A DNA stretch of 10,491 nucleotides from a virus (IMGVR_UViG_2690316028_000010), one strand, 5' to 3'; numbered from the stretch's first letter, positions 1-10,491 are shown. Program-made: numbers and translations. Notes: a model not told the origin generated them from the sequence alone.

Positions 1-780
1 TTATGGCCTTGTATTTCCTTTTCTTAACTTCTTTTCGCTCTTTTTTACAAGCTTAATTAACCACTCTGGCTCATCCGACAGTTCGGAGTAATAGCAGTAT
101 TCTGGTATTGCTTTCCAAAATGTTGTTATTGCATCAGCAAATTCAACAAACTGTTCTTCTGTTACATGCAGATCATCATGAGTAGGATTGATATGTCTGC
201 CGCATATACCAGTAGGATGAGGGTAATATTCTGGATGAGTTGATGATAGGAGGCGGTGAGAATTTCCATCACCATGTTTGTACACATTTACGACTAATGC
301 GCACGCTTTGAGCTTATCGCCATAATCAGTTTCATCTATCTTGAGACCGATCCACTCGAGCAGTTTCAACAGTTGATCAAAATTTAAATCCCAAACCATT
401 GGTGTAATGATCTCTTTATCACACCAATGAGACAATTCTCTGATCGTTTTTTCTCGTAACTTTTTATCGAACTGGTGATACATACCCGCAGTTACTGCCA
501 AAAGAACAGTTTCTTGCATTTCAATAAGTGACCAGACGTAGTTTACACCCTCCTCATATGCTTGCTCATAGGCTGCCATTGGGTCGTCAAAATCAGGATT
601 GAAATGCTCAGCGGTATACTCCAGAAACTGTTTCTCTCGCTCCTCCGCCTCTTGGGTCAGATCCCCAAACTGAGACAAAAGTCTCCGTCTTGCTTCCGAA
701 ACATAAAATTCGTGAGGTTCAAGAAAATAGGGCCGATCTACTTTAGCAAGCCAAAATGTCACGAAGTTATCTGATGACAT
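1..780 (-). CDS. hypothetical protein, 259 aa, AT-rich accessory gene; function unknown
   Basis: Complete ORF: ATG at 780-778 (plus 'cat'), stop TAA at 3-1. SD-like 'aagga' about 7 nt upstream on minus strand. Protein has mixed composition, not low-complexity. Local GC is clearly lower than the central block (by-eye count of the first 120 nt ~37%). No family recognised. Confidence 0.6.
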   Translation of the reverse strand: MSSDNFVTFWLAKVDRPYFLEPHEFYVSEARRRLLSQFGDLTQEAEEREKQFLEYTAEHFNPDFDDPMAAYEQAYEEGVNYVWSLIEMQETVLLAVTAGMYHQFDKKLREKTIRELSHWCDKEIITPMVWDLNFDQLLKLLEWIGLKIDETDYGDKLKACALVVNVYKHGDGNSHRLLSSTHPEYYPHPTGICGRHINPTHDDLHVTEEQFVEFADAITTFWKAIPEYCYYSELSDEPEWLIKLVKKSEKKLRKGNTRP

Positions 781-924
781 AACTTATCCTTGATAATTAT
801 TGTATGGATAGATTATCCAGAAATTTGCGAACTGAGTCGGTCATTTTTTTTTGTGTGCGCGTGATGTAATAAAGGTTCAGGAATATACTGTCAGTTTACT
901 GAAAAACTGGCAACAGAGGCGGTT
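781..924. promoter_or_regulatory. divergent intergenic region between the 259-aa gene (minus) and the 75-aa gene (plus); presumed to hold both promoters
   Basis: 144-bp AT-rich gap with a T9 run (843-851) between two outward-facing start codons. No confident -35/-10 pair could be assigned by eye. Confidence 0.3.
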
Positions 925-1152
925 ATGAGCGAGAGTTACGAGTTCTCAGCAGGTTGTTTTTTGAAGCTATCAATATCTTCAGGGTATTTCACTATCAAAA
1001 TTCAGGGAGATCTCCCCGCTCGTGCAGCTAGTGCCATCTTGGCAGATGATGTCGAGCAGGTTTTATCTCAACTAGACAAATGTTTTCAGCTGAGTAATAG
1101 GCAACGAGAAGGGATCGTTAAGTATCTTATGTCGAAGGGGATGCAGCCTTGA
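925..1152 (+). CDS. hypothetical small protein, 75 aa
   Basis: ATG at 925 preceded by SD 'agagg' (915-919). Stop TGA at 1150-1152 overlaps the next gene's ATG (TGATG), indicating translational coupling. Confidence 0.5.
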   Translation: MSESYEFSAGCFLKLSISSGYFTIKIQGDLPARAASAILADDVEQVLSQLDKCFQLSNRQREGIVKYLMSKGMQP

Positions 1153-1610
1153 TGACTTGGATCACCCAAACAGATAACTGGACAGGGATCGCGGCGTGGG
1201 CGGGTTTTGCTTTGTCCGTATTTCAATTACTAAAATCCAGAACATCGCTAAGGCTTTATCTCGGATGTGATCAGCACGAGGACAGGATATACGTTTCGAA
1301 CATAAGCGCACACGATGTAACGTTGAGTGCAGCCGGTGTGGTAACAGCCAGTGGACGCCTTAGAATGTTATCCGACGAATATTCGGACGAGAACATGATC
1401 ACACCGATGCTGCCAAAAAGATTGAAAGCACGAGACGAAATGGTCTTGAACGTGCCATTCATAAATAAGGCTCATCACAACAAAGTGCATCATCGTGGCG
1501 GGGTTTATATCAAAACATCTGACGGCAAGATGTTCAGTGATGTTTGTTGGATCAAACGCCAATGGTGGTGGTTACTGTCTGTAATACTACGAGACACAAA
1601 GCGATACTAA
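1152..1610 (+). CDS. hypothetical membrane-anchored protein, 152 aa from ATG 1152 (ORF track starts at TTG 1149)
   Basis: Start ATG 1152 overlaps upstream stop. One N-terminal hydrophobic stretch 'WTGIAAWAGFALSVFQLL' (~1182-1235) consistent with a single TM helix or signal anchor; remainder hydrophilic with a His-rich patch (HHNKVHH). Stop TAA 1608-1610. Confidence 0.5.
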   Translation: MTWITQTDNWTGIAAWAGFALSVFQLLKSRTSLRLYLGCDQHEDRIYVSNISAHDVTLSAAGVVTASGRLRMLSDEYSDENMITPMLPKRLKARDEMVLNVPFINKAHHNKVHHRGGVYIKTSDGKMFSDVCWIKRQWWWLLSVILRDTKRY

Positions 1611-1639
1611 GTTGATTGATAGTCCGAGGTGATGTTCTG

Positions 1640-1657
1640 CCCAGCGTAGTTGCTGGG
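1640..1657 (+). terminator. weak hairpin downstream of the 75/152-aa pair (6-bp stem cccagc/gctggg, 6-nt loop)
   Basis: Inverted repeat 1640-1645 / 1652-1657. No following U-tract, so at best a weak terminator or RNA structure. Confidence 0.2.
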
Positions 1658-1690
1658 TGATACACCTTCAATGATTCTTGTTAGTGTGTA

Positions 1691-1699
1691 GGGGGGGGG
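1691..1699 (+). repeat. homopolymeric G9 tract immediately upstream of the 72-aa ORF start
   Basis: Sequence 'gggggggggc' then ATG at 1701. Upstream in-frame stop TAG at 1689-1691 places the tract in the 5' UTR / ribosome-binding region, not inside coding sequence. Confidence 0.9.
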
Positions 1700-1700
1700 C

Positions 1701-1919
1701 ATGTTGGATTTTAAAGCTGAGTTTGTTGGCGGCAGCCATAGCGGCGAGGTTATATCACCGATGTCCGAGGTAGAACTTAATAAACTAGGGTATAGAGTCC
1801 ATTTACGTGGTGCCCCCTCTGGCGATGAAATGCCTGTACACGTTGTTGTACCTATTGAATGGTCAGCGGATGAAGCACACAGAGCCATAATGCAGCGCTG
1901 GGGTAAACGCAGACGGTAG
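1701..1919 (+). CDS. hypothetical small protein, 72 aa, basic C-terminus (WGKRRR)
   Basis: ATG 1701, stop TAG 1917-1919; G-rich SD-like sequence directly upstream. Composition more protein-like than the overlapping minus-strand ORF 1607-1930 (S/P/T-rich). No family recognised. Confidence 0.45.
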   Translation: MLDFKAEFVGGSHSGEVISPMSEVELNKLGYRVHLRGAPSGDEMPVHVVVPIEWSADEAHRAIMQRWGKRRR

Positions 1920-2301
1920 ATGTCGCGCATTTCTCTTAAACTGGCTGCTGTGTTTGGTGCTAATTATCCATGCAAAGTGGCCTAAGCTACGTGGAAGAAT
2001 GATCAGTTTCGCATTATTTGGTTCAAGGAGGGCTCCCCCACAGCCTCACTCTCTGAATGCAAAACAGCCCCACAATCCCACTGTTAAAAGTCCCAGCTTG
2101 AAAATTGCACGCTTATGGTTGCCCCTCCCTCAACTCTATAGCTCGCCCGCGCCCCCGTGTGCATGTGCGTGCCCGCGCGTCAGGGGTCGCTGAGAAACCC
2201 TAAGATTTTGCTCATCCGAGACAAGCATTACCTGCACCTGTAAAACGCGAAATTACCTCTCAAACACCACACATAAACCCACTTTGCATTGAGATCTGAC
2301 A
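1920..2301. other. ~380-bp GC-rich, apparently non-coding spacer with C-rich runs and an alternating purine-pyrimidine tract
   Basis: Only ORF here (1954-2193) is Pro/Ala/Arg-rich and low-complexity. Contains 'gcccgcgc' twice (2146-2153, 2171-2178) flanking 'gtgtgcatgtgcgtg' (2157-2171). Sits upstream of the capsid-like operon. Confidence 0.4.
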
Positions 2302-2649
2302 ATGACCTTACTGACACCTGAAAACGTGGCAGCGGCTAGGGCTGCCCGTAGCGCGAGGATTGAACACTGGAAAGCCAACGCCAGCCAGCTTAAGCAGGAC
2401 TTTGCTGACGAAGCGCACTGGCGGCGGCTCGCCTCACGCTTCGGCGTGCGTATGCCCTCGGCGTATGTTCCCGGCTCCGAGCTGCGATTGCTGCGCCGGG
2501 CGGCCAAACGCGCGGGCATCTCTGGTGCTGATATGCGCGATGCTTTTGGTGGGGGCGTTGCGCACCTGCACGAGCTTAATCCCCATTGGCCTGCCTTCGC
2601 GCTTATCGGCCTGATTCTTGAGATCGCGGCTGAAAAAGCTGCTGCCTGA
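2302..2649 (+). CDS. hypothetical protein, 115 aa, Ala/Arg-rich with hydrophobic C-terminus; first gene of the capsid-like operon
   Basis: ATG 2302, stop TGA 2647-2649. Codon third positions G/C-biased, consistent with real coding in this GC-rich block. Function not recognised; a small scaffold or packaging-associated protein are possibilities only. Confidence 0.5.
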   Translation: MTLLTPENVAAARAARSARIEHWKANASQLKQDFADEAHWRRLASRFGVRMPSAYVPGSELRLLRRAAKRAGISGADMRDAFGGGVAHLHELNPHWPAFALIGLILEIAAEKAAA

Positions 2650-2717
2650 TTCATCCCATTCTCTTTTCCCCTTTTCCATAAATCGCGCTGGCTAACGCTG
2701 GCGCGGGAGCTATTTCT

Positions 2718-3713
2718 ATGACTGACAATGTTTATACCCCTGACCAATTCCGCCCGCACTGGGGCGGTGTAGATGCTGACAACGACATTCACATTGAAGC
2801 GTATGACCGGGACGTTCAGACCCGCCTTGAGGCAAAGAGCGTGTTTCTCGCCGAGGGGCTGAGCACATACAAGCCGCTGAAAAACAGTAATCAGTATCGT
2901 GTAGACCGCCTGAGCGGAGATCTGGAGGTGAAGGGCAGAACCGCAGGGCAATCGCTGGAGCCTACCGCCGTTAAGTCGGACAAGCTGATTATCTCTGTGG
3001 ATACGCTGAGCTATATCCGCATCCCGATTGACTATCAAGACGACTGGACAGCGCCCACCTTTCGCGCAGAGCTGAGCCGCAACATGGGGACAGCCCATGC
3101 AAAGTTCTACGACGAAGCGCACACTATCCAGCTAATCAAAGCGACTGACTTTGTACCGCCGCCTACGTTGCAACCAACGTTTAACCCGCTGACGGATAAT
3201 GTTGTCTCGCTCGACCTGACAACGGGGAGCGAAGAGGATGCGGCTAACGAACTGGTTCACGCTATTAAAGCTGCTGTTAATCGATTCCTAACTGAAAAAG
3301 ATATTCCGGTGGCGGAGCTGTGCCTTCTCATCGACCCAGCTTGGTTCAGCATCCTGATGGAACATAAGAAGTTGATGAACGTCCGTTACAGCCGGGATAG
3401 TGGCAATGATTACGCATGGCGTCGCGTTGGCTATGTCGCTGGGGTGCGAGTTATTGAGCTGAACAGTTACCCGCAGGAAGCCATTACCGCGCATGAACTG
3501 GGCGCTGATTATGATGTGACCGCAGGGGAAGCGCTGACACGGGCGACGCTGTTCCGGCCTGCGTCTGTACTTGTGACAGTCGAAGCGCAGAGCGTTATCA
3601 ATCGCCAGTGGGATGATGAACGCGAAATGACAATGGTGATGGACTCATATCGCCTGTTCAATGTTGGGCTGCGCCGCCCTGACTGCGTTATAAATTTCCG
3701 ACAAGCTGCATAA
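2718..3713 (+). CDS. putative phage major capsid protein (HK97-fold / T7 gp10-like), 331 aa
   Basis: ATG 2718 with SD 'gggag' ~8 nt upstream; stop TAA 3711-3713. Several segments resemble T7-type capsid proteins from memory (e.g. 'IPVAELCLLIDPAWFSILM', C-terminal 'GLRRPDCVINFR'). Followed 17 nt later by an HNH gene, a common capsid-module neighbour. Similarity is by recall, not alignment. Confidence 0.5.
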   Translation: MTDNVYTPDQFRPHWGGVDADNDIHIEAYDRDVQTRLEAKSVFLAEGLSTYKPLKNSNQYRVDRLSGDLEVKGRTAGQSLEPTAVKSDKLIISVDTLSYIRIPIDYQDDWTAPTFRAELSRNMGTAHAKFYDEAHTIQLIKATDFVPPPTLQPTFNPLTDNVVSLDLTTGSEEDAANELVHAIKAAVNRFLTEKDIPVAELCLLIDPAWFSILMEHKKLMNVRYSRDSGNDYAWRRVGYVAGVRVIELNSYPQEAITAHELGADYDVTAGEALTRATLFRPASVLVTVEAQSVINRQWDDEREMTMVMDSYRLFNVGLRRPDCVINFRQAA

Positions 3714-3729
3714 CAAAAGGGGCCGAGCC

Positions 3730-4161
3730 ATGAATATTGATGCTTATGCCCCGGAGCTGTTGCGCTCTTTGTTTCGGTACGATGCGAAGACTGGCCGCCT
3801 GTTCCATGCAGTAGACCGGATCGGAGCCAACAAGCGGATTTACGCTAAAGCCGGGGAACTGGCCGACACGGTAACGGACAGCGCCGGATATAGGCGCGTA
3901 TCTGTCCGCATCAATGGCAAATCTCATGCGCTATACGCCCACCGTGTCGCCTTCATCATTGCTAATGACGGTATCCCTGCCGGGATGCAAATCGACCATA
4001 TCAACGCGGTACGCGATGACAACCGCCTTATCAATCTCCGCACGGTTACGCCACAAGAGAACCAGCACAATTACCGCAAAGCCAAGGGTTATAGCCACCA
4101 TGCCTGCTCTGGCAGATGGGAGGCTTACATTCGCGTTGGTGATCCACCGCGCGATAAATAA
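3730..4161 (+). CDS. HNH endonuclease (HNH_3-type, phage-associated), 143 aa
   Basis: ATG 3730 with SD 'aaagggg'; stop TAA 4159-4161. Clear HNH signature 'IDHINAVRDDNRLINLRTVTPQENQHN' and the N-terminal 'GYRRVSVRINGKSHALYAHRVAFI' pattern typical of this family. Confidence 0.85.
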   Translation: MNIDAYAPELLRSLFRYDAKTGRLFHAVDRIGANKRIYAKAGELADTVTDSAGYRRVSVRINGKSHALYAHRVAFIIANDGIPAGMQIDHINAVRDDNRLINLRTVTPQENQHNYRKAKGYSHHACSGRWEAYIRVGDPPRDK

Positions 4162-4200
4162 GCCGCAATCCGTGAGATAAATGGACACGGTGCGGCTTTT
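4161..4200. terminator. bidirectional intrinsic terminator candidate between convergent HNH and tape-measure genes
   Basis: Imperfect hairpin: 'agccgca' (4161-4167) pairs with 'tgcggct' (4191-4197), inner stem 'ccgtg'/'cacgg', followed by TTTT (4197-4200) on plus strand and an A/T-rich run on the other side. Lies in the 66-bp gap between the two converging stop codons. Confidence 0.5.
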
Positions 4201-4227
4201 CAGATACTGCAAAGGAATTACAGATTA

Positions 4228-6711
4228 TCAGTCGTAAGCAACCCGGCGCTTACGGGCAAGGATAGCTTCCAGTGCTCTTTCAATCTCAGGAATGGACAGC
4301 TTAAGCGCATTGGCCACATCCGGTGCTGGTGACTTGTTCTTGCCATCAATATAGATATTGTTAATGACGTTAATCCCGCCGCCTGCGCCTGCTGGTGAAT
4401 GAGAGTCCCGGCCTCTGGGTAAGGTAAGGTCGCCGCGCATATAGCGCTCTAATACGGGGGGTACTTTCGGCACATCCGGCACCATCATATCAGCCAGCCG
4501 CGAGGAGGCTTTCAGCGCCAGTGATGCAGACTGACCAATGCCAATCGCCGCCCCTTCTGCGATATTAGACCCGAAGCCCATAAATACACGGCTTGGCGAG
4601 TGAATCCCCAGCTTTTCCTTGAACCAGCCGCCGACACTGTCACCCATCTCAGTGACGGTATTCTTGAGAGACTCCCACTTGTTTTTGATACCGTTCACCA
4701 GTCCATCAATCAAGTGACCACCAAACTCAGTAAACTGGCCGGGAAGGTCGATGTTAAACCACTTCATGACCCCCGCAAACGCCTTGTAGAACAGCCCCAG
4801 CGGCGACCAGTTCAGGATTAGCTTACTGACACCAAGAACCCCGCCGTTAAAGGCTGTTTTCACTTCCTCCCACCGCTGCGAGAACCATCGGCTTATCGCG
4901 CCCCAGTTGCGGTAAATCAGGTACGCGCCCCCGGCGATGATGGTTATCGCAATGCCTATGGGGTTCATTAACAGCGCCCTGCCAAACCAGAGGAAAGCCT
5001 TTGCCACCACCATTACGCCTCTGAACAGTCCACCCGCCAGCGCTTTACCCAGCATTCCGGCTCCCTTCGCCACGGTACTGAATCCGGTAGCCAGCCAGCG
5101 CAGCTTTCCGCCGTCGCTCAGGGCGGTTTTGAGCAACAGCCAGTTAGTGCGCAGCAGTACGGCGTTTTTCCACAACCCGGCGAACGGTGATACCAGCAGA
5201 TTCAGGCCGAGTTTCAGCCCGACAGTGGCGATTTTCAGCCCCAGCAGTACGCCCACGGTTTTTGCCACACCCTGAACAATGCCGGGATGTTGCGCTATCC
5301 ATTGCCCGGTGGAATGAATCAGCGGAATCAGTTGCTGCGTCATTGACACGAACGAGGGAGACAGTTGACTGCCAAGGGTAATGGACAGTTCGCGGGTGCT
5401 GACCATCAGTGCTTTGGTCGCCTCCAGCGGCGATTTCAGTCGCTCCGTGTAGGAGGAGGCCAGCAGGTCTTTATCCGCCGCCTTAAGTGCGCCAGCCCTG
5501 ATTTCGCGGTATTTGTCCATGTTGGCGAGCATCGGACGGACAAACGCCATGACCTGCATATCGGCGAACATCTCACCCAGACCGAAATTCTTTGCCAGTT
5601 CCTGTAACGCAAGGTCGCGGGAGTTATCGTCCTTGATTTTCATTGCTTTCTTGAAGCCTGCCAGTGCTTCCGGGCTTTTGGCCTCCAGATACCTGCCCAT
5701 GACGCTTATCATGCCCTCAATGGGCGAGACGCCAGCAGATTTATAAGCCATGAGTGACCCCTGAAGGTCAATCCCGATATCGGCAAACTGTTTCTGCGTG
5801 TCGCGGGCAAAAATCTTGGTGAGGAAGTTACGGAAGTTGTTACCAGCCTCGTCAGATGACCCGGCACCAATTCGGGCAATCTGTAAACTCGCTCCGATTT
5901 CCGCCATCGCTTCTTTACCTTCGGCAATACCGCGCATCATCGGGGCAAGAGATGGCATCCATTTCACCTGGTCAGGTATTTCAAAAGACCCTTGGTCGCC
6001 TGCAAAGGCCATGATGTTCTGTACTTTGGCAAACTCTTTAGCGCTGCCATCCATCGAGTTTTTCCAGACGGCGGCAACCTTCGCCCATTCCGTCCCTGTG
6101 GTGCGTGTGGCAGTAGCGGCGCGGGCTATATTGGGCATGAAGCTGCCAATTTCGGACACACTGTCGATATTGTCACTGATAAGCGAGCCTACGGCGTCCT
6201 GTAAGTCGCTCTGGTACTGGTTGTACTTGAGCGACCATCCCCGGATTTGCTGCCCCAGACTGGCGCGGGTTTTATCGTCATATTTCGCCGTGATCGACAT
6301 ATCAATCATCTTGTCGTCGAACGTAGCCGACTGCTGAATCGCCGGGGAAACGAGGCTGTAAGCGGCTTTGGCCTGCGCCCACGTCTCAATTCCCTGTCCA
6401 TAAAGCGCCATCCGGTTAGCTCTCAGGGCATCGGTTGTGGCAGACGCTGCCGACAGGCGGGACTGCTGGCGGTTTAGTTGCTCCAGCGTTCTGCCTACCC
6501 GTTGCAGGTCATTGTTCAGGCGTGAGGCCACGCCTGAACCTACCTGACCGTAACGCTGCATGGCGCGTGACAGGCTGCTTTGTTGCTCGGTCAGGCGGCG
6601 TGACGTGTCGCCGAGAGAATCAAGCGCCCGCCGTGTGCCGCTGACGGCGGAACGGAAGCTGCTCCCGACAATACCGCCAATCATCACACCAACAGAAAAA
6701 TTATTGCTCAT
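4228..6711 (-). CDS. phage tail tape-measure protein, 827 aa
   Basis: ATG 6711-6709 with SD 'ggagtg'; stop at 4228. Helical N-terminal region, long central Gly/Ala/Leu-rich hydrophobic segment, and C-terminal 'GIHSPSRVF'-type motif that I recall from tape-measure proteins. Size is typical. Confidence 0.75.
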   Translation of the reverse strand: MSNNFSVGVMIGGIVGSSFRSAVSGTRRALDSLGDTSRRLTEQQSSLSRAMQRYGQVGSGVASRLNNDLQRVGRTLEQLNRQQSRLSAASATTDALRANRMALYGQGIETWAQAKAAYSLVSPAIQQSATFDDKMIDMSITAKYDDKTRASLGQQIRGWSLKYNQYQSDLQDAVGSLISDNIDSVSEIGSFMPNIARAATATRTTGTEWAKVAAVWKNSMDGSAKEFAKVQNIMAFAGDQGSFEIPDQVKWMPSLAPMMRGIAEGKEAMAEIGASLQIARIGAGSSDEAGNNFRNFLTKIFARDTQKQFADIGIDLQGSLMAYKSAGVSPIEGMISVMGRYLEAKSPEALAGFKKAMKIKDDNSRDLALQELAKNFGLGEMFADMQVMAFVRPMLANMDKYREIRAGALKAADKDLLASSYTERLKSPLEATKALMVSTRELSITLGSQLSPSFVSMTQQLIPLIHSTGQWIAQHPGIVQGVAKTVGVLLGLKIATVGLKLGLNLLVSPFAGLWKNAVLLRTNWLLLKTALSDGGKLRWLATGFSTVAKGAGMLGKALAGGLFRGVMVVAKAFLWFGRALLMNPIGIAITIIAGGAYLIYRNWGAISRWFSQRWEEVKTAFNGGVLGVSKLILNWSPLGLFYKAFAGVMKWFNIDLPGQFTEFGGHLIDGLVNGIKNKWESLKNTVTEMGDSVGGWFKEKLGIHSPSRVFMGFGSNIAEGAAIGIGQSASLALKASSRLADMMVPDVPKVPPVLERYMRGDLTLPRGRDSHSPAGAGGGINVINNIYIDGKNKSPAPDVANALKLSIPEIERALEAILARKRRVAYD

Positions 6712-6742
6712 GGTTCACTCCGGTTGAGTGGTTCGGTGGGCG

Positions 6743-7336
6743 TCATTCAGTCAGGGACAGGCCGCTGATTCCGGTAATCCCGGCAATTTCTTCGCTGACG
6801 GCTGCCAGTTCACTTTCAAGCCCGGTGCGTTCGCTGACCAGTGCCGCCACGGTCTTACGGCGCTCTGCCAGTGAGGGAAGTTTGTCATTACCCCACGTCA
6901 CGCTCTTATCCTTCTTAAGCGCTTCGGTCAGTCGGGTGGCGACCACATCCGGGAAGAAAAAGCAGAGCTTGCGCATTACCGCCATCCCGGTATCAGCCGG
7001 GGGGACGTTTCCTCCCAGCCCCACCAGACGGAACAGACCGGAAATATCGCCGTTCTCATTTTCCAGATTGCCCCAGCGTTCGGCGTTCCCTTCACCGCCG
7101 GAACCGTTGCAAAGAGCACGCTTGAATGACTGATATTCTTCCTGCCCGAATCGCTCAATATATTCAGGAATAAAGGAACAGTAATCATTAAGTGATAACG
7201 GCATATCCTGTAATGCGGTTATTTCGCCATTAATATCACCAATGCGACGAGAGAGCTTTTCTTTCTGCTCATTCAGGGAGGTAAGGTTATTTTTAACGGC
7301 GTTCAGTGCTTCAATGAGGGAAATAACAGGTTTCAT
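6743..7336 (-). CDS. hypothetical protein, 197 aa, coiled-coil-like N- and C-termini; possible scaffold-like or tail-assembly accessory protein
   Basis: ATG 7336-7334 lies 1 nt after the upstream gene's TAA (taaAATG) with SD 'ggag' inside the upstream gene's 3' end; stop TGA 6745-6743. Heptad-like ends; no slippery heptamer seen at the 3' end. Confidence 0.5.
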   Translation of the reverse strand: MKPVISLIEALNAVKNNLTSLNEQKEKLSRRIGDINGEITALQDMPLSLNDYCSFIPEYIERFGQEEYQSFKRALCNGSGGEGNAERWGNLENENGDISGLFRLVGLGGNVPPADTGMAVMRKLCFFFPDVVATRLTEALKKDKSVTWGNDKLPSLAERRKTVAALVSERTGLESELAAVSEEIAGITGISGLSLTE

Positions 7337-7337
7337 T

Positions 7338-7952
7338 TTAATAACTCCAGATAAAAGGTGTAGTGAGGGTGAGCGCTTCGGAATAGGAGACGTTGCAGGC
7401 TTCGCTTACATCCTTTATTAAAAGGTGCTGCGCTGCCCTCTGGCTGTCGGCTATGCCGTCGAGCTCTGAGAAATAAACGTGTGATTCATTGTGACCAAAA
7501 CAAACCGGGTAAGCGCTTTCCATAAACTCCACCTGCTCAAGCCCCTTTACGGCTGGCGGCTGTGCGCCGAGAAAACCAATATGGCGAAGATACCAGGCAC
7601 CAGTTCCGGCCGGGTTACGCGCTTCTCCCGGCCTGTAGAAAGCGGCAGACACTTTTTTATATAGACCTGACTGAACCATATCCAGCAACCTGTTATCAGG
7701 CTTAACCAGCGCGAAAAGTCTGCCGTTTTTACTTATCAGTCCGGTGGTTTCACCATAGGCGGGACTGTTACTGGCCGGATGCCCCAGGCACAGCGGCGCA
7801 CCATAACCCGCGCGATGATAGCCGTTATAGGCTGCTGCCATGTTGTCGATATCCTCGTCGGAAAAGCTGATTTCCTGCCCCGCCATCGCGGTATGTGTTC
7901 CCGCCCGGAATATCTCAATAGTTTTCCAGTTACCAATATTGATATCTGTCAT
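7338..7952 (-). CDS. putative GPO-family prohead protease / capsid scaffolding protein, N-terminal protease-like domain, 204 aa
   Basis: ATG 7952-7950; stop TAA 7340-7338. Recalled resemblance to P2 gpO N-terminus: 'FRAGTHTAMAGQEISFSDEDIDNMAAAY' vs gpO 'FRIGVEGDTCDGRVISAQDIQEMAETF', and 'LCLGH' vs gpO 'INLEH'. Shorter than P2 gpO (~284 aa). Confidence 0.55.
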   Translation of the reverse strand: MTDINIGNWKTIEIFRAGTHTAMAGQEISFSDEDIDNMAAAYNGYHRAGYGAPLCLGHPASNSPAYGETTGLISKNGRLFALVKPDNRLLDMVQSGLYKKVSAAFYRPGEARNPAGTGAWYLRHIGFLGAQPPAVKGLEQVEFMESAYPVCFGHNESHVYFSELDGIADSQRAAQHLLIKDVSEACNVSYSEALTLTTPFIWSY

Positions 7953-7953
7953 T

Positions 7954-8481
7954 TTATATTTGTCCCTGTTTCATATCGCGGCACTCTTTGTTTTTCTTAC
8001 GCTCGGCGGCAATAATCTGATAAATCCACTGAATAGAATTGCCATATTTCCTGGCTAATTCCCGATGAGTCATCCCTTGTTTGTAATCGGAAAATATCCT
8101 GGCATTTCTGTCGAAAGAGTTTCTGGCTGCGCCATTAGGTATATAGAAATTGTTACCTTTAAAGACCCTTCTAAGGTGTTCTGTAATTTCCGGGGAAATG
8201 ATTTCGGCCTGAGCCGAAAAGCAATGTATTGTAAGCAAAGCCTGCGCTATCACACCTGTAAGCTCATGCAGAAAAGATGTTGCTTTAGGGGCGTCTTCAC
8301 ATTCTATTGGCATGTAATTCTGGCAACCACCAAGATTATCAGATATATGCAAAACAATTTTATTTGCTGCACTACTTGCCTGAAGTTGTGAATAGCCCGC
8401 ATCAGTCAGAAAATCTTCAATCGCATCCCCCATTTCCCCCAGAGTGTCAGATGTTGCGTACAATCCCTCTCTTGTAATCAT
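7954..8481 (-). CDS. Mor/C-family transcriptional activator (Mu middle/late activator family), ~175 aa from ATG 8481
   Basis: C-terminal region matches the Mor pattern: 'NFYIPNGAARNSF' (cf. Mor 'QVYIPRG'), 'RIFSDYKQGMTHRELARKYGNSIQWIYQIIAAERKK' (HTH). ATG 8481-8479 has SD 'gagg' ~7 nt upstream; the ORF-track start at 8487 is a GTG too close to the SD. Stop TAA 7956-7954, 1 nt before the next gene's start. Confidence 0.75.
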   Translation of the reverse strand: MITREGLYATSDTLGEMGDAIEDFLTDAGYSQLQASSAANKIVLHISDNLGGCQNYMPIECEDAPKATSFLHELTGVIAQALLTIHCFSAQAEIISPEITEHLRRVFKGNNFYIPNGAARNSFDRNARIFSDYKQGMTHRELARKYGNSIQWIYQIIAAERKKNKECRDMKQGQI

Positions 8482-8509
8482 AATCACACCTCGGTAATGA
8501 TAAAGATGT

Positions 8510-8614
8510 GCGCTAAAAAGGCTTTATAAAGCTTTATGAGGCGTCTTTCTGGTGACAAATCAGCACATACACCATTAACGCTTTAAAATGGCTTACAGGC
8601 TTTTTTAGCGCGGG
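8510..8614. promoter_or_regulatory. regulatory region upstream of the Mor-like gene: 12-bp palindrome, tandem 'gctttat' and flanking 10-bp inverted repeats
   Basis: 'ataaagctttat' perfect palindrome at 8526-8537; 'gctttat' at 8521-8527 and 8531-8537. 'gcgctaaaaa' (8510-8519) is the inverse of 'tttttagcgc' (8602-8611). Promoter hexamers not confidently assigned. Confidence 0.35.
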
Positions 8615-8681: not shown

Positions 8682-8703
8682 AAGCCCCTCAGAGGAGGGG
8701 CTT
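8682..8703. terminator. GC-rich hairpin (9-bp stem, 4-nt loop) immediately downstream of the 96-aa gene; candidate intrinsic terminator
   Basis: 'aagcccctc' (8682-8690) pairs perfectly with 'gaggggctt' (8695-8703), loop 'agag'. Sits 17 nt past the TAA at 8722-8720; the flanking run on the minus-strand transcript is only moderately U-rich. Confidence 0.45.
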
Positions 8704-8719
8704 GCGGGATTACGCCAGA

Positions 8720-9010
8720 TTATTGAGGTCGTCTGTCTTTCCTCAATCCATCAAGTAGCGCCATGGCATCAGTAACCAGTATGCCAGCAGCATCCGTAAC
8801 CATCGAAACATCAGAGGATGCACATGATTTATCCATACCTAATGTTGACGCAAAATCAAGTAGCTTACGAACTGCGTCAAGTCGATAGGTGGCAGAGTCG
8901 TAAATTAACTCCTGATTAGCATCAGTCTTTAAAAACATAATATCATCAGAGGCACCTTGCGAAAATGACGGCATCGCACGGAAAGTATTTTGAGTTTCAG
9001 CCTGTTTCAT
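8720..9010 (-). CDS. hypothetical protein, 96 aa
   Basis: ATG 9010-9008 overlaps the upstream gene's TGA (ATGA, coupling); SD 'ggagg' ~8 nt upstream; stop TAA 8722-8720. Confidence 0.5.
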   Translation of the reverse strand: MKQAETQNTFRAMPSFSQGASDDIMFLKTDANQELIYDSATYRLDAVRKLLDFASTLGMDKSCASSDVSMVTDAAGILVTDAMALLDGLRKDRRPQ

Positions 9011-9744
9011 TGTGCAGTCCTCCGGCTAATAGCGAATTTATTATAAACTTCATAACTGGCAGCATTCAGTCCGGGGTTGTATTTATCAGCCAGAGCACAG
9101 GCAATCATATGTTCAATAAATTTTGTTATTGCGTTAAGTTCAGTTTCGTTTGAATAACGCAATGCCACTTTGAGTAACTCGCGGCAATATTGTTTTTTAT
9201 TCCCTTCGATTTGGCCTGATTTTTTTATTCCTGCCTTTTTATCTGATTCATCCTCAACAGGCAAAGATGGGATATCCTCTTTATTGGTTAGCGTTCTTTC
9301 GCAAATAATATCTTCACCAGATTGAATTACGCGCTGCAACTCTCTGGCGCTCATACGAAGAATATCATCAAGCGTGTGGTCGTTATATGCCCCACCACTG
9401 GCAAGGAGATCCAGTGTCACTTCATCCAGCCGGGCAAGCAGGTTTAACTTCGTTTTGCCGATACTTGTTTTGGCAATTGCGGCTCGGGGGGTATTGGTTA
9501 CGCCAAATATCAGAGCAACCCGCATAGCATTATGGGCTTCACGTTTATTAATTCCCCCCACTGAAAGCGCCTTTGCAAATTCCTCATTTGTTTTTGTTGC
9601 TTCCTTAAGTGCCAGCATCTCTTTACCACGATGCACTAAAGTTTCAGTCGGGGTTGGCAAAAGGAGTACAGCATCTAAAATTTTTTCCCGAAGTACATCA
9701 ACTTGGCTTGCGATGCATGAACGGTTAGACTTGTTGATACCCAT
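9007..9744 (-). CDS. hypothetical protein, ~245 aa from ATG 9744 (ORF track begins at TTG 9765); candidate early/regulatory protein
   Basis: ATG 9744-9742 preceded by SD 'gagga' ~9 nt upstream; stop TGA 9009-9007. Acidic/Lys-rich linker mid-protein; no P-loop or other catalytic motif recognised. Divergent from the RHH gene. Confidence 0.5.
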   Translation of the reverse strand: MGINKSNRSCIASQVDVLREKILDAVLLLPTPTETLVHRGKEMLALKEATKTNEEFAKALSVGGINKREAHNAMRVALIFGVTNTPRAAIAKTSIGKTKLNLLARLDEVTLDLLASGGAYNDHTLDDILRMSARELQRVIQSGEDIICERTLTNKEDIPSLPVEDESDKKAGIKKSGQIEGNKKQYCRELLKVALRYSNETELNAITKFIEHMIACALADKYNPGLNAASYEVYNKFAISRRTAQ

Positions 9745-9774
9745 GATTGTTATCCTCAATAACAATGGTGGTCA

Positions 9775-9809: not shown

Positions 9810-9840
9810 GCTTGCGGTTTTACATCTACTTAATGTAATG

Positions 9841-9877
9841 TACGTACCATTGATTTCAATCTAAACAATGGTACGTA
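9841..9877. promoter_or_regulatory. perfect 12-bp inverted repeat with 13-bp spacer (candidate operator) overlapping the RHH gene start codon
   Basis: 'tacgtaccattg' (9841-9852) and its exact reverse complement 'caatggtacgta' (9866-9877). The right arm covers the ATG at 9868-9870. Located in the divergent promoter region. Confidence 0.55.
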
Positions 9878-10071
9878 TCATGTCAAGAGTAAAAGATAAC
9901 ACGCCTAAAAATTCCGCAGGGCGTTCCCCGACCTTCCAAATACGTATTACACCTGAACTTAGGGAACAGCTTGATAAAGAAGCTCTTAAAGATGGTGTAA
10001 GTTTGGCCAATTGGCTCAAAGGCATTGCACGAGATGAACTACGCAGGAGAGGTATTTCTCCAAAAGGGTAG
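9868..10071 (+). CDS. ribbon-helix-helix (Arc/MetJ-like) DNA-binding protein, 67 aa; putative repressor
   Basis: 'FQIRITPELREQLDKEALKDGVSLANWLKGIARDEL' fits the RHH beta-strand plus two helices (cf. Arc 'FNLRWPREVLDLVRKVAEENGRSVNSEIYQRVMESF'). ATG 9868 (alternative ATG 9880), both with weak SD; stop TAG 10069-10071. Confidence 0.6.
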   Translation: MVRIMSRVKDNTPKNSAGRSPTFQIRITPELREQLDKEALKDGVSLANWLKGIARDELRRRGISPKG

Positions 10072-10086
10072 GGCTAATCAGGTACA

Positions 10087-10476
10087 AAAAGCGAAAACGT
10101 TTTCGCTTTTATGGCTAAGAGAGCGGATGCACTCATTAAAGCGGACAGCGCTGTCCGCCTCCAATCAGCAAAAAAACAAGATGGTTCCTCCAAAACGCTC
10201 AACGTTGAGCGTTACGTTATTCCGACAAAAGCGCAGGCGCTTGCGCTTTTGAAAGGGATCAACACGGCTTTCAAACCGGACAACGTTGACCGCTTTAAGG
10301 AATCACTGTCGGCTGAGCAAAAACGGCAAGCGCTTGCCGTTTTAGATTCGCGGGGCGGTAAACGTTTACCGTTCTGTGTCAATTATGTTCAAAAGCGAAA
10401 GCGCTTTCGCATTTTCTCACCTAAAGCGGCAAACCTCCTCTGTCTTAGCTGGAAAAACGACATCGCTGTCGTTTTT
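10087..10476. repeat. array of eight hairpin-capable palindromes of one family (A-tract, CG-rich core, T-tract)
   Basis: P1 10087-10110 aaaagcgaaaac|gttttcgctttt (perfect, 24 bp); P2 10141-10158 gcggacagc|gctgtccgc (perfect); P3 10194-10213 aacgctcaac|gttgagcgtt (perfect); P4 10227-10250 (1 mismatch); P5 10320-10343 aaaacggcaagc|gcttgccgtttt (perfect); P6 10356-10371 cggtaaac|gtttaccg (perfect); P7 10391-10414 (1 mismatch); P8 10453-10476 aaaaacgaca-tcgc-tgtcgttttt. Symmetry kept while sequence differs between copies. Confidence 0.85.
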
Positions 10477-10491
10477 AATCCGAGGTTCTAA
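10111..10491 (+). CDS. ORF of 126 aa overlapping the palindrome array; coding status doubtful
   Basis: ATG 10111 directly after palindrome P1, stop TAA 10489-10491 at window end. Repeated peptide motifs (KAQALALL, KRQALAVL, KRKRFRIF) are direct consequences of the DNA palindromes, so the frame may be open by chance. Confidence 0.3.
   Translation: MAKRADALIKADSAVRLQSAKKQDGSSKTLNVERYVIPTKAQALALLKGINTAFKPDNVDRFKESLSAEQKRQALAVLDSRGGKRLPFCVNYVQKRKRFRIFSPKAANLLCLSWKNDIAVVFNPRF

Follow-up and report, generated by a model that had tools for sequence, protein, structure and literature searches.

To our knowledge, the well-described families of phage satellites (P4-like, PICI, cfPICI, PLE, and PICMI) all use their own recombinase and their own replication origin. 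Engineered mini-Mu and mini-D3112 elements, which carry Mu-type ends without (all) the transposition genes, are mobilized by the A/B and virion proteins of a helper phage, with headful packaging that takes along flanking host DNA. Such engineered elements are mentioned in PMC8705779, and the EPIPs of Mycolicibacterium are reported to be satellites that encode a tape measure protein (TMP) and give particles with altered tails (PMC12822802). Here, we analyzed a block of genes in IMGVR_UViG_2690316028_000010, a 10,491-nucleotide stretch of viral DNA (the window, by which we mean the whole stretch), that a sequence-only reading had taken for the condensed late operon of a satellite-like or highly rearranged element. 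The block corresponds to the left arm, with the late operon, of a non-autonomous transposable element derived from Bcepmuvirus, the group of Mu-type phages that we call helpers below; it is compact and not a conventional prophage segment, in agreement with the sequence-only reading. We propose, with a probability of about 0.6, that the element is a natural "mini-Mu" phage satellite of Bcepmuvirus, which would be moved by the helper transposase, remodel helper capsids, and supply its own TMP. Full-text literature searches returned no description of transposable-phage satellites or natural mini-Mu elements of this kind.

A non-autonomous transposable element with Bcepmuvirus-type ends

The element is ~7.8 kb long, and the window holds its left part, without the right ~1.4 kb. 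Sequence rightward of position 4140 was found again in ~10 complete E. coli genomes and several plasmids, and the left boundary of homology is sharp, at 4140-4147, across all copies. The left terminus and the late operon comprise the following features.

4140..4225, no strand: left transposon terminus, 5'-TGATCCACCGCGCGATAAAT..., with the sharp homology edge at 4140 in all copies; aligned to the left end of helper NZ_CP132021.1 at its position 2222
4160..4198, minus strand: hairpin resembling a terminator, downstream of the TMP gene (stem of 13 bp, U-rich AUUUAU tail, -29.3 kcal/mol, z -2.83)
4228..6711, minus strand: TMP of 827 aa, whose gene closes both the operon and the element's left arm (PF10145, E 5e-20; TIGR01760; phrog_28/5690)
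6743..7336, minus strand: p197, 197-aa orphan coiled-coil protein, signature gene of the element family (no profile matches)
7338..7952, minus strand: p204, 204-aa capsid maturation protease (assemblin/T4 gp21 fold; His58-Ser102-His124)
7954..8487, minus strand: Mor-family late transcription activator (PF08765, E 1.7e-25; phrog_532)
8522..8531, no strand: palindromic 10-bp box CTTTATAAAG, ~45 bp upstream of the Mor start

All copies start at the 5' side with TGATnnnnCGCGCGATAAA and finish at the 3' side with ATTTATCTCAnGTCTAATCA. In 14 independent insertions the ends are 5'-TGAT...AATCA-3', each flanked by a perfect 6-bp target-site duplication (TSD), and all of the TSDs are different. These insertions come from E. 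coli (three), an Enterobacter phage-plasmid, Yersinia (two), Intestinirhabdus, Tenebrionibacter, Erwinia (two), Pectobacterium, a metagenome-assembled genome, and a metagenome contig from ENA. One more insertion, the 15th, lies in an IMG isolate genome and is spread over two contigs with matching flanks. Mu-type TG...CA termini, sub-terminal repeats, and short TSDs at random sites are thus all present. A TCC triplet after the TSD was considered as a target specificity from the first four copies, and was gone with more copies.

In complete genomes, host genes directly adjoin the element, which lies in ynbC (AW1.7), at dacD/sbmC (CX21), and at ybhC-ybhJ (KCJ3K291); further copies lie in a dehydrogenase gene, in the Enterobacter phage-plasmid, and in a conjugative element of Yersinia. 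In the complete genomes examined, the block has no genes for tube, chaperone, or baseplate beside it, so the usual tail neighbors of a TMP gene are indeed missing, as had been claimed, and the wider genomes reveal no conventional tail module. No transposase, MuB-like ATPase, or integrase was found in any element copy, and none of the 14 copies examined has capsid, portal, terminase large subunit, tube, sheath, baseplate, or lysis genes. The element lacks complete head, tail, and lysis modules and has the incomplete virion and replication gene set by which phage satellites are recognized, keeping only a protease derivative, p197, and the TMP. It combines the ends and TSD of an autonomous element with the absence of the cognate transposase, and is in this sense mini-Mu-like. 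The markers of P4 (integrase, alpha primase-helicase, Sid/Psu/Delta, cos) are missing among the Pfam, PHROG, and NCBIfam matches, and those of PICIs and cfPICIs (integrase, AlpA, primase/rep, site-specific att; for cfPICIs, a full capsid module) were not found inside the element.

The Bcepmuvirus-type DDE transposase and MuB-like ATPase that the element lacks are seen in the helpers NZ_CP132021.1, L006, L021, and L033. The first of these is recorded as a 40.5-kb circular E. coli "plasmid" and contains a complete Bcepmuvirus (2222-37731) with ~5 kb of chromosomal DNA; a 6-bp TSD is visible at both junctions, and the DDE transposase and AAA ATPase are encoded. Its left end starts TGATGCGCCGCGCGATAAAT...CCGTGAGATAAATGG and its right end closes ...ATTTATCTCACGTCTAATCA, and ~85 bp per end can be aligned with the element, including three inverted sub-sites reminiscent of L1-L3/R1-R3 of Mu. 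At the left terminus in the window these sub-sites lie at ~4140-4159, 4170-4182, and 4196-4222, and they are also present in the helper left end; the hairpin at 4160-4198 overlaps these putative transposase-binding sites. All of the recognizable element proteins, namely the TMP, the N-terminal domain of the protease, Mor, a DUF3102-like protein, and Gp27, encoded at the right end, have Bcepmuvirus counterparts with 31-71% identity, and this indicates a single phage-lineage origin. The mosaic of a Mu activator, a P2 protease, and a tape measure that the sequence-only reading had suggested was therefore not upheld; the three genes concerned derive from Bcepmuvirus, with 34-71% identity.

Of 5,426 complete E. 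coli genomes, 639 contain a transposase of the helper type. Both the element and a helper are present in AW1.7, where the helper transposase shares 99.7% identity with that of NZ_CP132021.1; the co-occurrence of element and helper is not significant after clonality is considered. In 23 ST131-type genomes (L004), a TMP-less, IS5-disrupted copy lies beside tRNA-Ser, and all of them also match the chimeric probe a second time, presumably in a helper-type prophage.

The gene order in the 14 complete or near-complete copies is left end, TMP, p197, p204, Mor, p96, and DUF3102, followed by the divergent ribbon-helix-helix (RHH) gene, the right arm, and the right end. This order holds down to 40-52% protein identity (Pectobacterium), and the copies are mostly 7.6-8.0 kb. 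Two parts vary. There are two non-orthologous Mor types, ~28% identical, that are swapped among copies, and two right arms: type A, found in the window, has a palindrome array and Gp27, whereas type B has a second RHH gene and p318, a collinear orthologue of the helper DUF3102 protein. The four late genes are under purifying selection, with ratios of nonsynonymous to synonymous substitution (dN/dS) of 0.04-0.26 at dS up to 0.8 (TMP, 0.04-0.14; p204, 0.08-0.20; p197, 0.09-0.26), and the DUF3102 gene has a dN/dS of 0.18-0.41. Judging from these sequences, the element is a maintained lineage, not debris.

Three metagenome contigs from independent assemblies consist of the element only. L031 (7,799 bp) runs exactly end to end, L035 is the element with 54-bp flanks, and L036, a noisier contig of 7,860 bp, has the same gene order, with termini that were not located. 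These contigs are consistent with an element present in many sequence contexts, and do not by themselves prove packaging. Element-sized contigs with a truncated p197, considered as circular or permuted forms, are linear elements with assembly frameshifts.

The late operon and related mini-elements

The four minus-strand open reading frames (ORFs) that the sequence-only reading had listed as Mor-type activator, protease, 197-aa protein, and tape measure are present as described and form one tight operon, with spacers of 1 nt or 31 nt. Mor, with its PF08765 domain, belongs to the Mor/C late activators and is 177 aa long from a GTG, with an alternative ATG start at 8481. The TMP gene is the last gene, followed by the hairpin, as had been claimed, because the transposon end sits 88 bp downstream, at 4140. 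The CTTTATAAAG box occurs once in the window and once per element copy, at the same place, and also once per ~35-kb helper genome, where it is intergenic and upstream of the protease/scaffold-capsid genes, against a chance expectation of 0.01 per sequence. The common box suggests that the late operon of the element answers to the same class of activator as the helper head genes.

p204 consists of the protease domain and the C-terminal helix hairpin of protease-scaffold fusions, with the ~160-aa scaffold core absent. The predicted fold and the conserved His/Ser/His residues identify it as a capsid maturation serine protease, and it matches the N-terminal third of the PHROG head-maturation-protease profile. 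Nevertheless, it is not of the P2/GPO type that had been assigned to it: no Pfam model matched p204, including Mu-like_Pro and Phage_GPO (PF05929), the latter even at E<=1, and its type is that of Mu gpI and BcepMu. The GPO label applies only loosely, to capsid proteases in general. Neither p204 nor p197 or p96 had a match in Pfam, NCBIfam, or PADLOC.

For p197, AlphaFold2 (pLDDT 75) predicts long N- and C-terminal helices that form an antiparallel helical hairpin with a helical insert, and the fold matches are to generic coiled coils only. An exhaustive search gave a family of 139 representative clusters. The p197 gene was not found in the three helpers compared. A BLAST comparison of p197 with the protease-scaffolds of helpers gave no similarity, and the idea that p197 is their scaffold domain in detached form is not supported, although a remote homology is possible. 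A p197 homologue with 55% identity lies at L012 2065-2637, in an unrelated AlpA and TIR-domain island, away from Mu-type genes.

The 827-aa protein is a TMP, as shown by its PF10145/TIGR01760 core and phrog_28 match, its long helical form with a hydrophobic segment, and its orthology to the tail module: near full-length alignments give 71% identity to PhiKM, 47% to KP12, and 32% to BcepMu, and in Bcepmuvirus phages the homologous gene has the gpE/E' chaperones on one side and the gpU/X/D genes on the other. Residues 1-100 and 501-750 show 64-80% identity to the helper TMP, and the center 22-34%. The idea of an altered tail length has no support here, because the TMPs of element and helper have 827 and 821 aa, respectively, apart from one variant of 1026 aa. 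This variant (KCJ3K291, L003 9081-12161) owes its length to a ~600-bp internal tandem duplication; should it serve as a structural protein, a longer tail would be expected. Two copies have lost the TMP in independent events, namely the ST131 copy disrupted by IS5 (L004) and a 4.4-kb copy from Tenebrionibacter (L024). Erwinia tracheiphila ICMP 5845 has two different copies (L025 and L026), with p197 92% and 82% identical to that of the window, and in both of them the TMP is truncated or interrupted.

Homologues of p197 directly follow short proteases in four other lineages of Mu-type mini-elements (7-9 kb), which makes "Mor + scaffold-less protease + p197-like" a recurring signature. The mini-elements L016/L017 (Salmonella enterica) and L014/L015 (metagenome), of ~7-9 kb, have a repressor, Ner, MuA, MuB, GemA, Mor, and Gam, together with a short protease and a p197-like protein, other structural genes and a TMP being absent; they look like the self-transposing counterpart of the element studied here. 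Another group, L018/L019 (metagenome, 19 contigs of 5-10 kb), combines Mor, a short protease, and a ~200-aa partner with a 969-aa TMP of the TMP_2 type and a gpS-like gene, and L020 (Pseudomonas leptonychotis) combines Mor, a short protease, and a ~200-aa partner with a tail chaperone and an 847-aa TMP. The partner is clearly p197-like in L020 and marginally so in L018, and no transposase was found in L018/L019 or L020. Among the five lineages sampled, a TMP joins the module only where the element's own transposase is missing.

The rest of the element and its insertion site

The remaining features of the window are as follows.

8685..8697, minus strand: terminator-like hairpin after p96, between the early-left genes and the Mor operon
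8720..9010, minus strand: p96, conserved small protein of the early-left operon
9007..9765, minus strand: DUF3102-like protein, 252 aa (245 aa from the ATG at 9744); phrog_1748
9832..9886, minus strand: promoter-like sites (TTGACA-17-TAGATT, 10/12) in the central divergent control region
9868..10071, plus strand: 67-aa RHH protein (HicB/YlcI/Arc-like), encoded by the first gene of the right arm (PF05534, E 2.6e-4; NF041551)
10087..10476, no strand: start of the palindrome array, with nine sites of 16-28 bp visible before the window ends; the array runs off the end
3730..4161, plus strand: HNH endonuclease gene, target of the insertion and not part of the element (intact homologues 175 aa; homology to them stops at 4137)

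A divergent promoter region at ~9830-9890 separates the leftward DUF3102 and p96 genes from the rightward RHH gene, whose product is likely a repressor. The DUF3102-like protein is a paralogue (30-39% identity) of the helper gene located just upstream of the transposase gene. In the equivalent of the intergenic region between p96 and Mor, Rfam gave a sub-threshold match to the STnc100 small RNA (L001 24534-24654, minus strand; 23.8 bits against 47, E 0.055), which is probably due to chance.

The array, which is confined to type-A right arms, consists of 8-13 individually palindromic sites of 16-32 bp (in L001, at 25950-26565), with AACGTT or AGCGCT at the center, arms that are variable yet self-symmetric, and outer A4/T4 tracts. 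We counted 12 palindromes, compared to 0.64 per element in a shuffled control. Each Bcepmuvirus helper has exactly one such palindrome, at ~codon 116 of its DUF3102 gene, which lies upstream of the transposase. The sites of different helpers are matched by different members of the array, and the AW1.7 element alone bears a 1-mismatch copy of the palindrome of its co-resident helper. As possible functions of the array we consider a library of decoys or recognition sites, terminators, or antisense hairpins. Its mirroring of single helper sites suggests that Bcepmuvirus phages use a cis-acting site not recognized so far. A 126-aa ORF at 10111-10491 (plus strand) is probably spurious, since it has 79 aa in L001 and L002 and its "K.QALA.L" repeats are translated palindromes. 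Downstream of the array, two 34-bp sequences form a perfect inverted repeat with 218 bp between them (L001 26629-26662 and 26881-26914), which is kept in all type-A copies. The 1.3-kb non-coding region of the right arm was considered as a relic of a helper gene, and tblastx against this possibility was empty.

Positions 1-4139 of the window belong to a different mobile element, an integrase island associated with tRNA-Gly, in which the Mu-type element is nested. The HNH gene, which is part of this separate island, is interrupted by the insertion at about residue 136, so that its final 7 codons and stop are supplied by the element. The capsid gene at 2718-3713 is likewise the island's and not the element's. 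Elsewhere, the tRNA-Gly island bears a DEAD helicase, a lone major-capsid gene, and the HNH gene, and it may itself be satellite-like. Around ~2229-2231, the window fuses segments that are ~6 kb apart in LR536431, and the helicase block is missing from the window because of this junction.

Proposed satellite life and comparison with known systems

If the element is a satellite, the lytic cycle of a co-resident or infecting helper would provide the DDE transposase and AAA ATPase, which would act in trans on the element's ends for replication or transposition, and a Mor-type activator, from helper or element, would fire the box-bearing promoter. p204 would then enter helper procapsids through its retained C-terminal hairpin, a putative capsid-binding region, and p204 and p197 would replace or compete with the internal scaffold of the helper, probably giving small capsids fitted to the ~8-kb genome. 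A role in capsid redirection is plausible, because p204 lost the scaffold core, kept the capsid-targeting tail, and pairs with a conserved coiled-coil protein. The TMP, with helper-like N- and C-proximal regions and equal length, would be built into helper tails, where the possible gain is to evade TMP-targeted blocks of tail assembly or entry exclusion, or to secure a supply of tails. Indirect evidence for a specific helper comes from the termini, TSD, and box that the element shares with Bcepmuvirus, from AW1.7 as a strain with both, and from the element-only metagenome contigs.

Several points weigh against the satellite proposal. Packaging, trans-mobilization, and small capsids are predicted steps, and the integration of a transposase-less element after entry into a helper-free cell is unexplained. 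A resident helper-type transposase is absent from four of the five intact E. coli satellite lineages, p197 has no detectable similarity to a known scaffold or size determinant, and the loss of the TMP in two copies implies that it is dispensable at least for persistence. Moreover, the stand-alone metagenome contigs could be repeat-induced assembly breaks.

The main rival is a transposon with anti-phage cargo, in which the scaffold-less protease, p197, and the variant TMP would poison Bcepmuvirus assembly and protect the host population, the element itself not being packaged. The ends, the TSDs, and the selection data are equally compatible with such interference, and a coreless protease targeted to capsids and a TMP with helper-like interface regions are possible assembly poisons; assembly-blocking defenses against tails or TMPs are known on prophages and satellites (PMC10884400, PMC11364771), most carriers have no resident helper, and a p197 homologue occurs in the unrelated AlpA/TIR island. 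Nevertheless, PADLOC gave no match, and a Gp27 (TerS-like) gene, ends of the complete helper type, and a narrow size range around ~7.8 kb are suggestive of selection for mobility and packaging; the spread over genera, plasmids, and integrative conjugative elements (ICEs) needs repeated helper-driven transposition. Interference is also compatible with satellite transfer, as in PLE and P4. We consider this rival unlikely, although worth keeping in mind. An autonomous element that uses one of its own uncharacterized proteins (DUF3102-like, p96, or p318) as transposase is very improbable: several proteins are without an assigned function and a DUF3102 paralogue is always present, but helpers hold DUF3102 besides a 589-aa DDE transposase and the AAA ATPase, the satellite proteins are small (96-318 aa) without DDE/rve or recombinase profile matches, and termini virtually identical to those of the helper imply the same transposase.

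A decaying deletion remnant of a Bcepmuvirus prophage, without a function of its own, would account for the Bcepmuvirus homologue of every recognizable gene and for the decay of some copies (the IS5-bearing, TMP-less ST131 copy and the truncated Erwinia copies). It does not fit a multi-deletion architecture that is shared, down to 40% identity, by insertions at 14 unrelated sites in at least seven genera with their TSDs intact, the strong purifying selection at dS up to 0.8, or proteins with 31-71% identity to any helper and a p197 gene that the three helpers compared do not show; we give this explanation hardly any weight. Even less credible is an ordinary prophage segment that continues, with its genes for tube, chaperone, and baseplate, just beyond a 10.5-kb window cut on the right side, given the host genes at both ends in complete genomes and a left neighbor in the window that is the truncated HNH gene of a different island. 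On the available genomes, we regard both of these explanations as excluded, because of the flanking host genes, the selection, the independent insertions with TSDs, and the conserved architecture.

Whether the satellite proposal extends to a first recognized class of satellites parasitizing Mu-type phages, with helper transposase, capsid remodeling by "Mor + scaffold-less protease + p197", in some cases a TMP, and in type-A members a multi-helper recognition or decoy array, seems to us an even bet. If so, the related Salmonella, Pseudomonas, and metagenomic mini-elements suggest a widespread strategy, and a recombinase-less satellite relying on the helper transposase would represent a different mode of phage parasitism. 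Such elements would account for small "phage remnant" loci in Enterobacterales, also on plasmids, ICEs, and phage-plasmids, and could be natural transduction vehicles, as Mu-type packaging carries flanking host DNA. The scaffold-less protease and its p197 partner would be a new candidate mechanism of capsid remodeling.

Compared to the Bcepmuvirus phages themselves (PhiKM, KP12 clone 2, and CP132021), the element has near-identical TG...CA termini with three sub-sites, the 6-bp TSD, and the CTTTATAAAG box, as well as homologous Mor, protease N-domain and C-tail, TMP, DUF3102, and Gp27, and the same divergent early/late layout running outward to both ends. It differs in size (7.8 kb against ~35.5 kb), in the absence of the transposase, MuB-like ATPase, terminase large subunit, portal, capsid, sheath, tube, baseplate, and lysis genes, in its protease without a scaffold core, in its extra p197 gene, and, in type A, in the palindrome array of the right arm. 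Mini-Mu and mini-D3112 share the Mu-type ends without transposition genes, but are laboratory constructs, whereas the element is natural and conserved, with regulatory and morphogenetic genes of its own under selection. By its predicted behavior it would be a phage satellite, but one with transposase-dependent mobility.

The closest functional analogues would be P4 Sid, SaPI CpmA/B, and PLE TcaP for capsids, and the EPIPs for a satellite-borne TMP. P4 is also small and dependent on a myophage helper, with a comparable logic of late transactivation (P4 Delta/P2 Ogr versus Mor) and a capsid-size determinant, Sid; however, it has an integrase, a primase-helicase replicon, cos packaging, and an external scaffold, and neither a TMP nor a protease. 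SaPI CpmA/CpmB and PLE TcaP compete with or replace the helper scaffold to give small capsids, a remodeling that for p204 and p197 we propose from the genes. CpmB mimics the capsid-binding C-terminus of the scaffold, and p204 retains a helper-like C-terminal hairpin, although the candidate here is a coreless protease with an orphan coiled-coil protein, for which a sequence or fold relationship to these proteins is not shown. The EPIPs, and a TMP-like protein proposed in PLE11, are further reports of satellites with their own tape measure. The EPIPs are actinobacterial elements with a serine integrase and with genes for capsid and connector proteins, whereas our element moves by transposition and has a TMP equal in length to that of its helper; together, the two cases prompt us to ask why some satellites come with a tape measure of their own.

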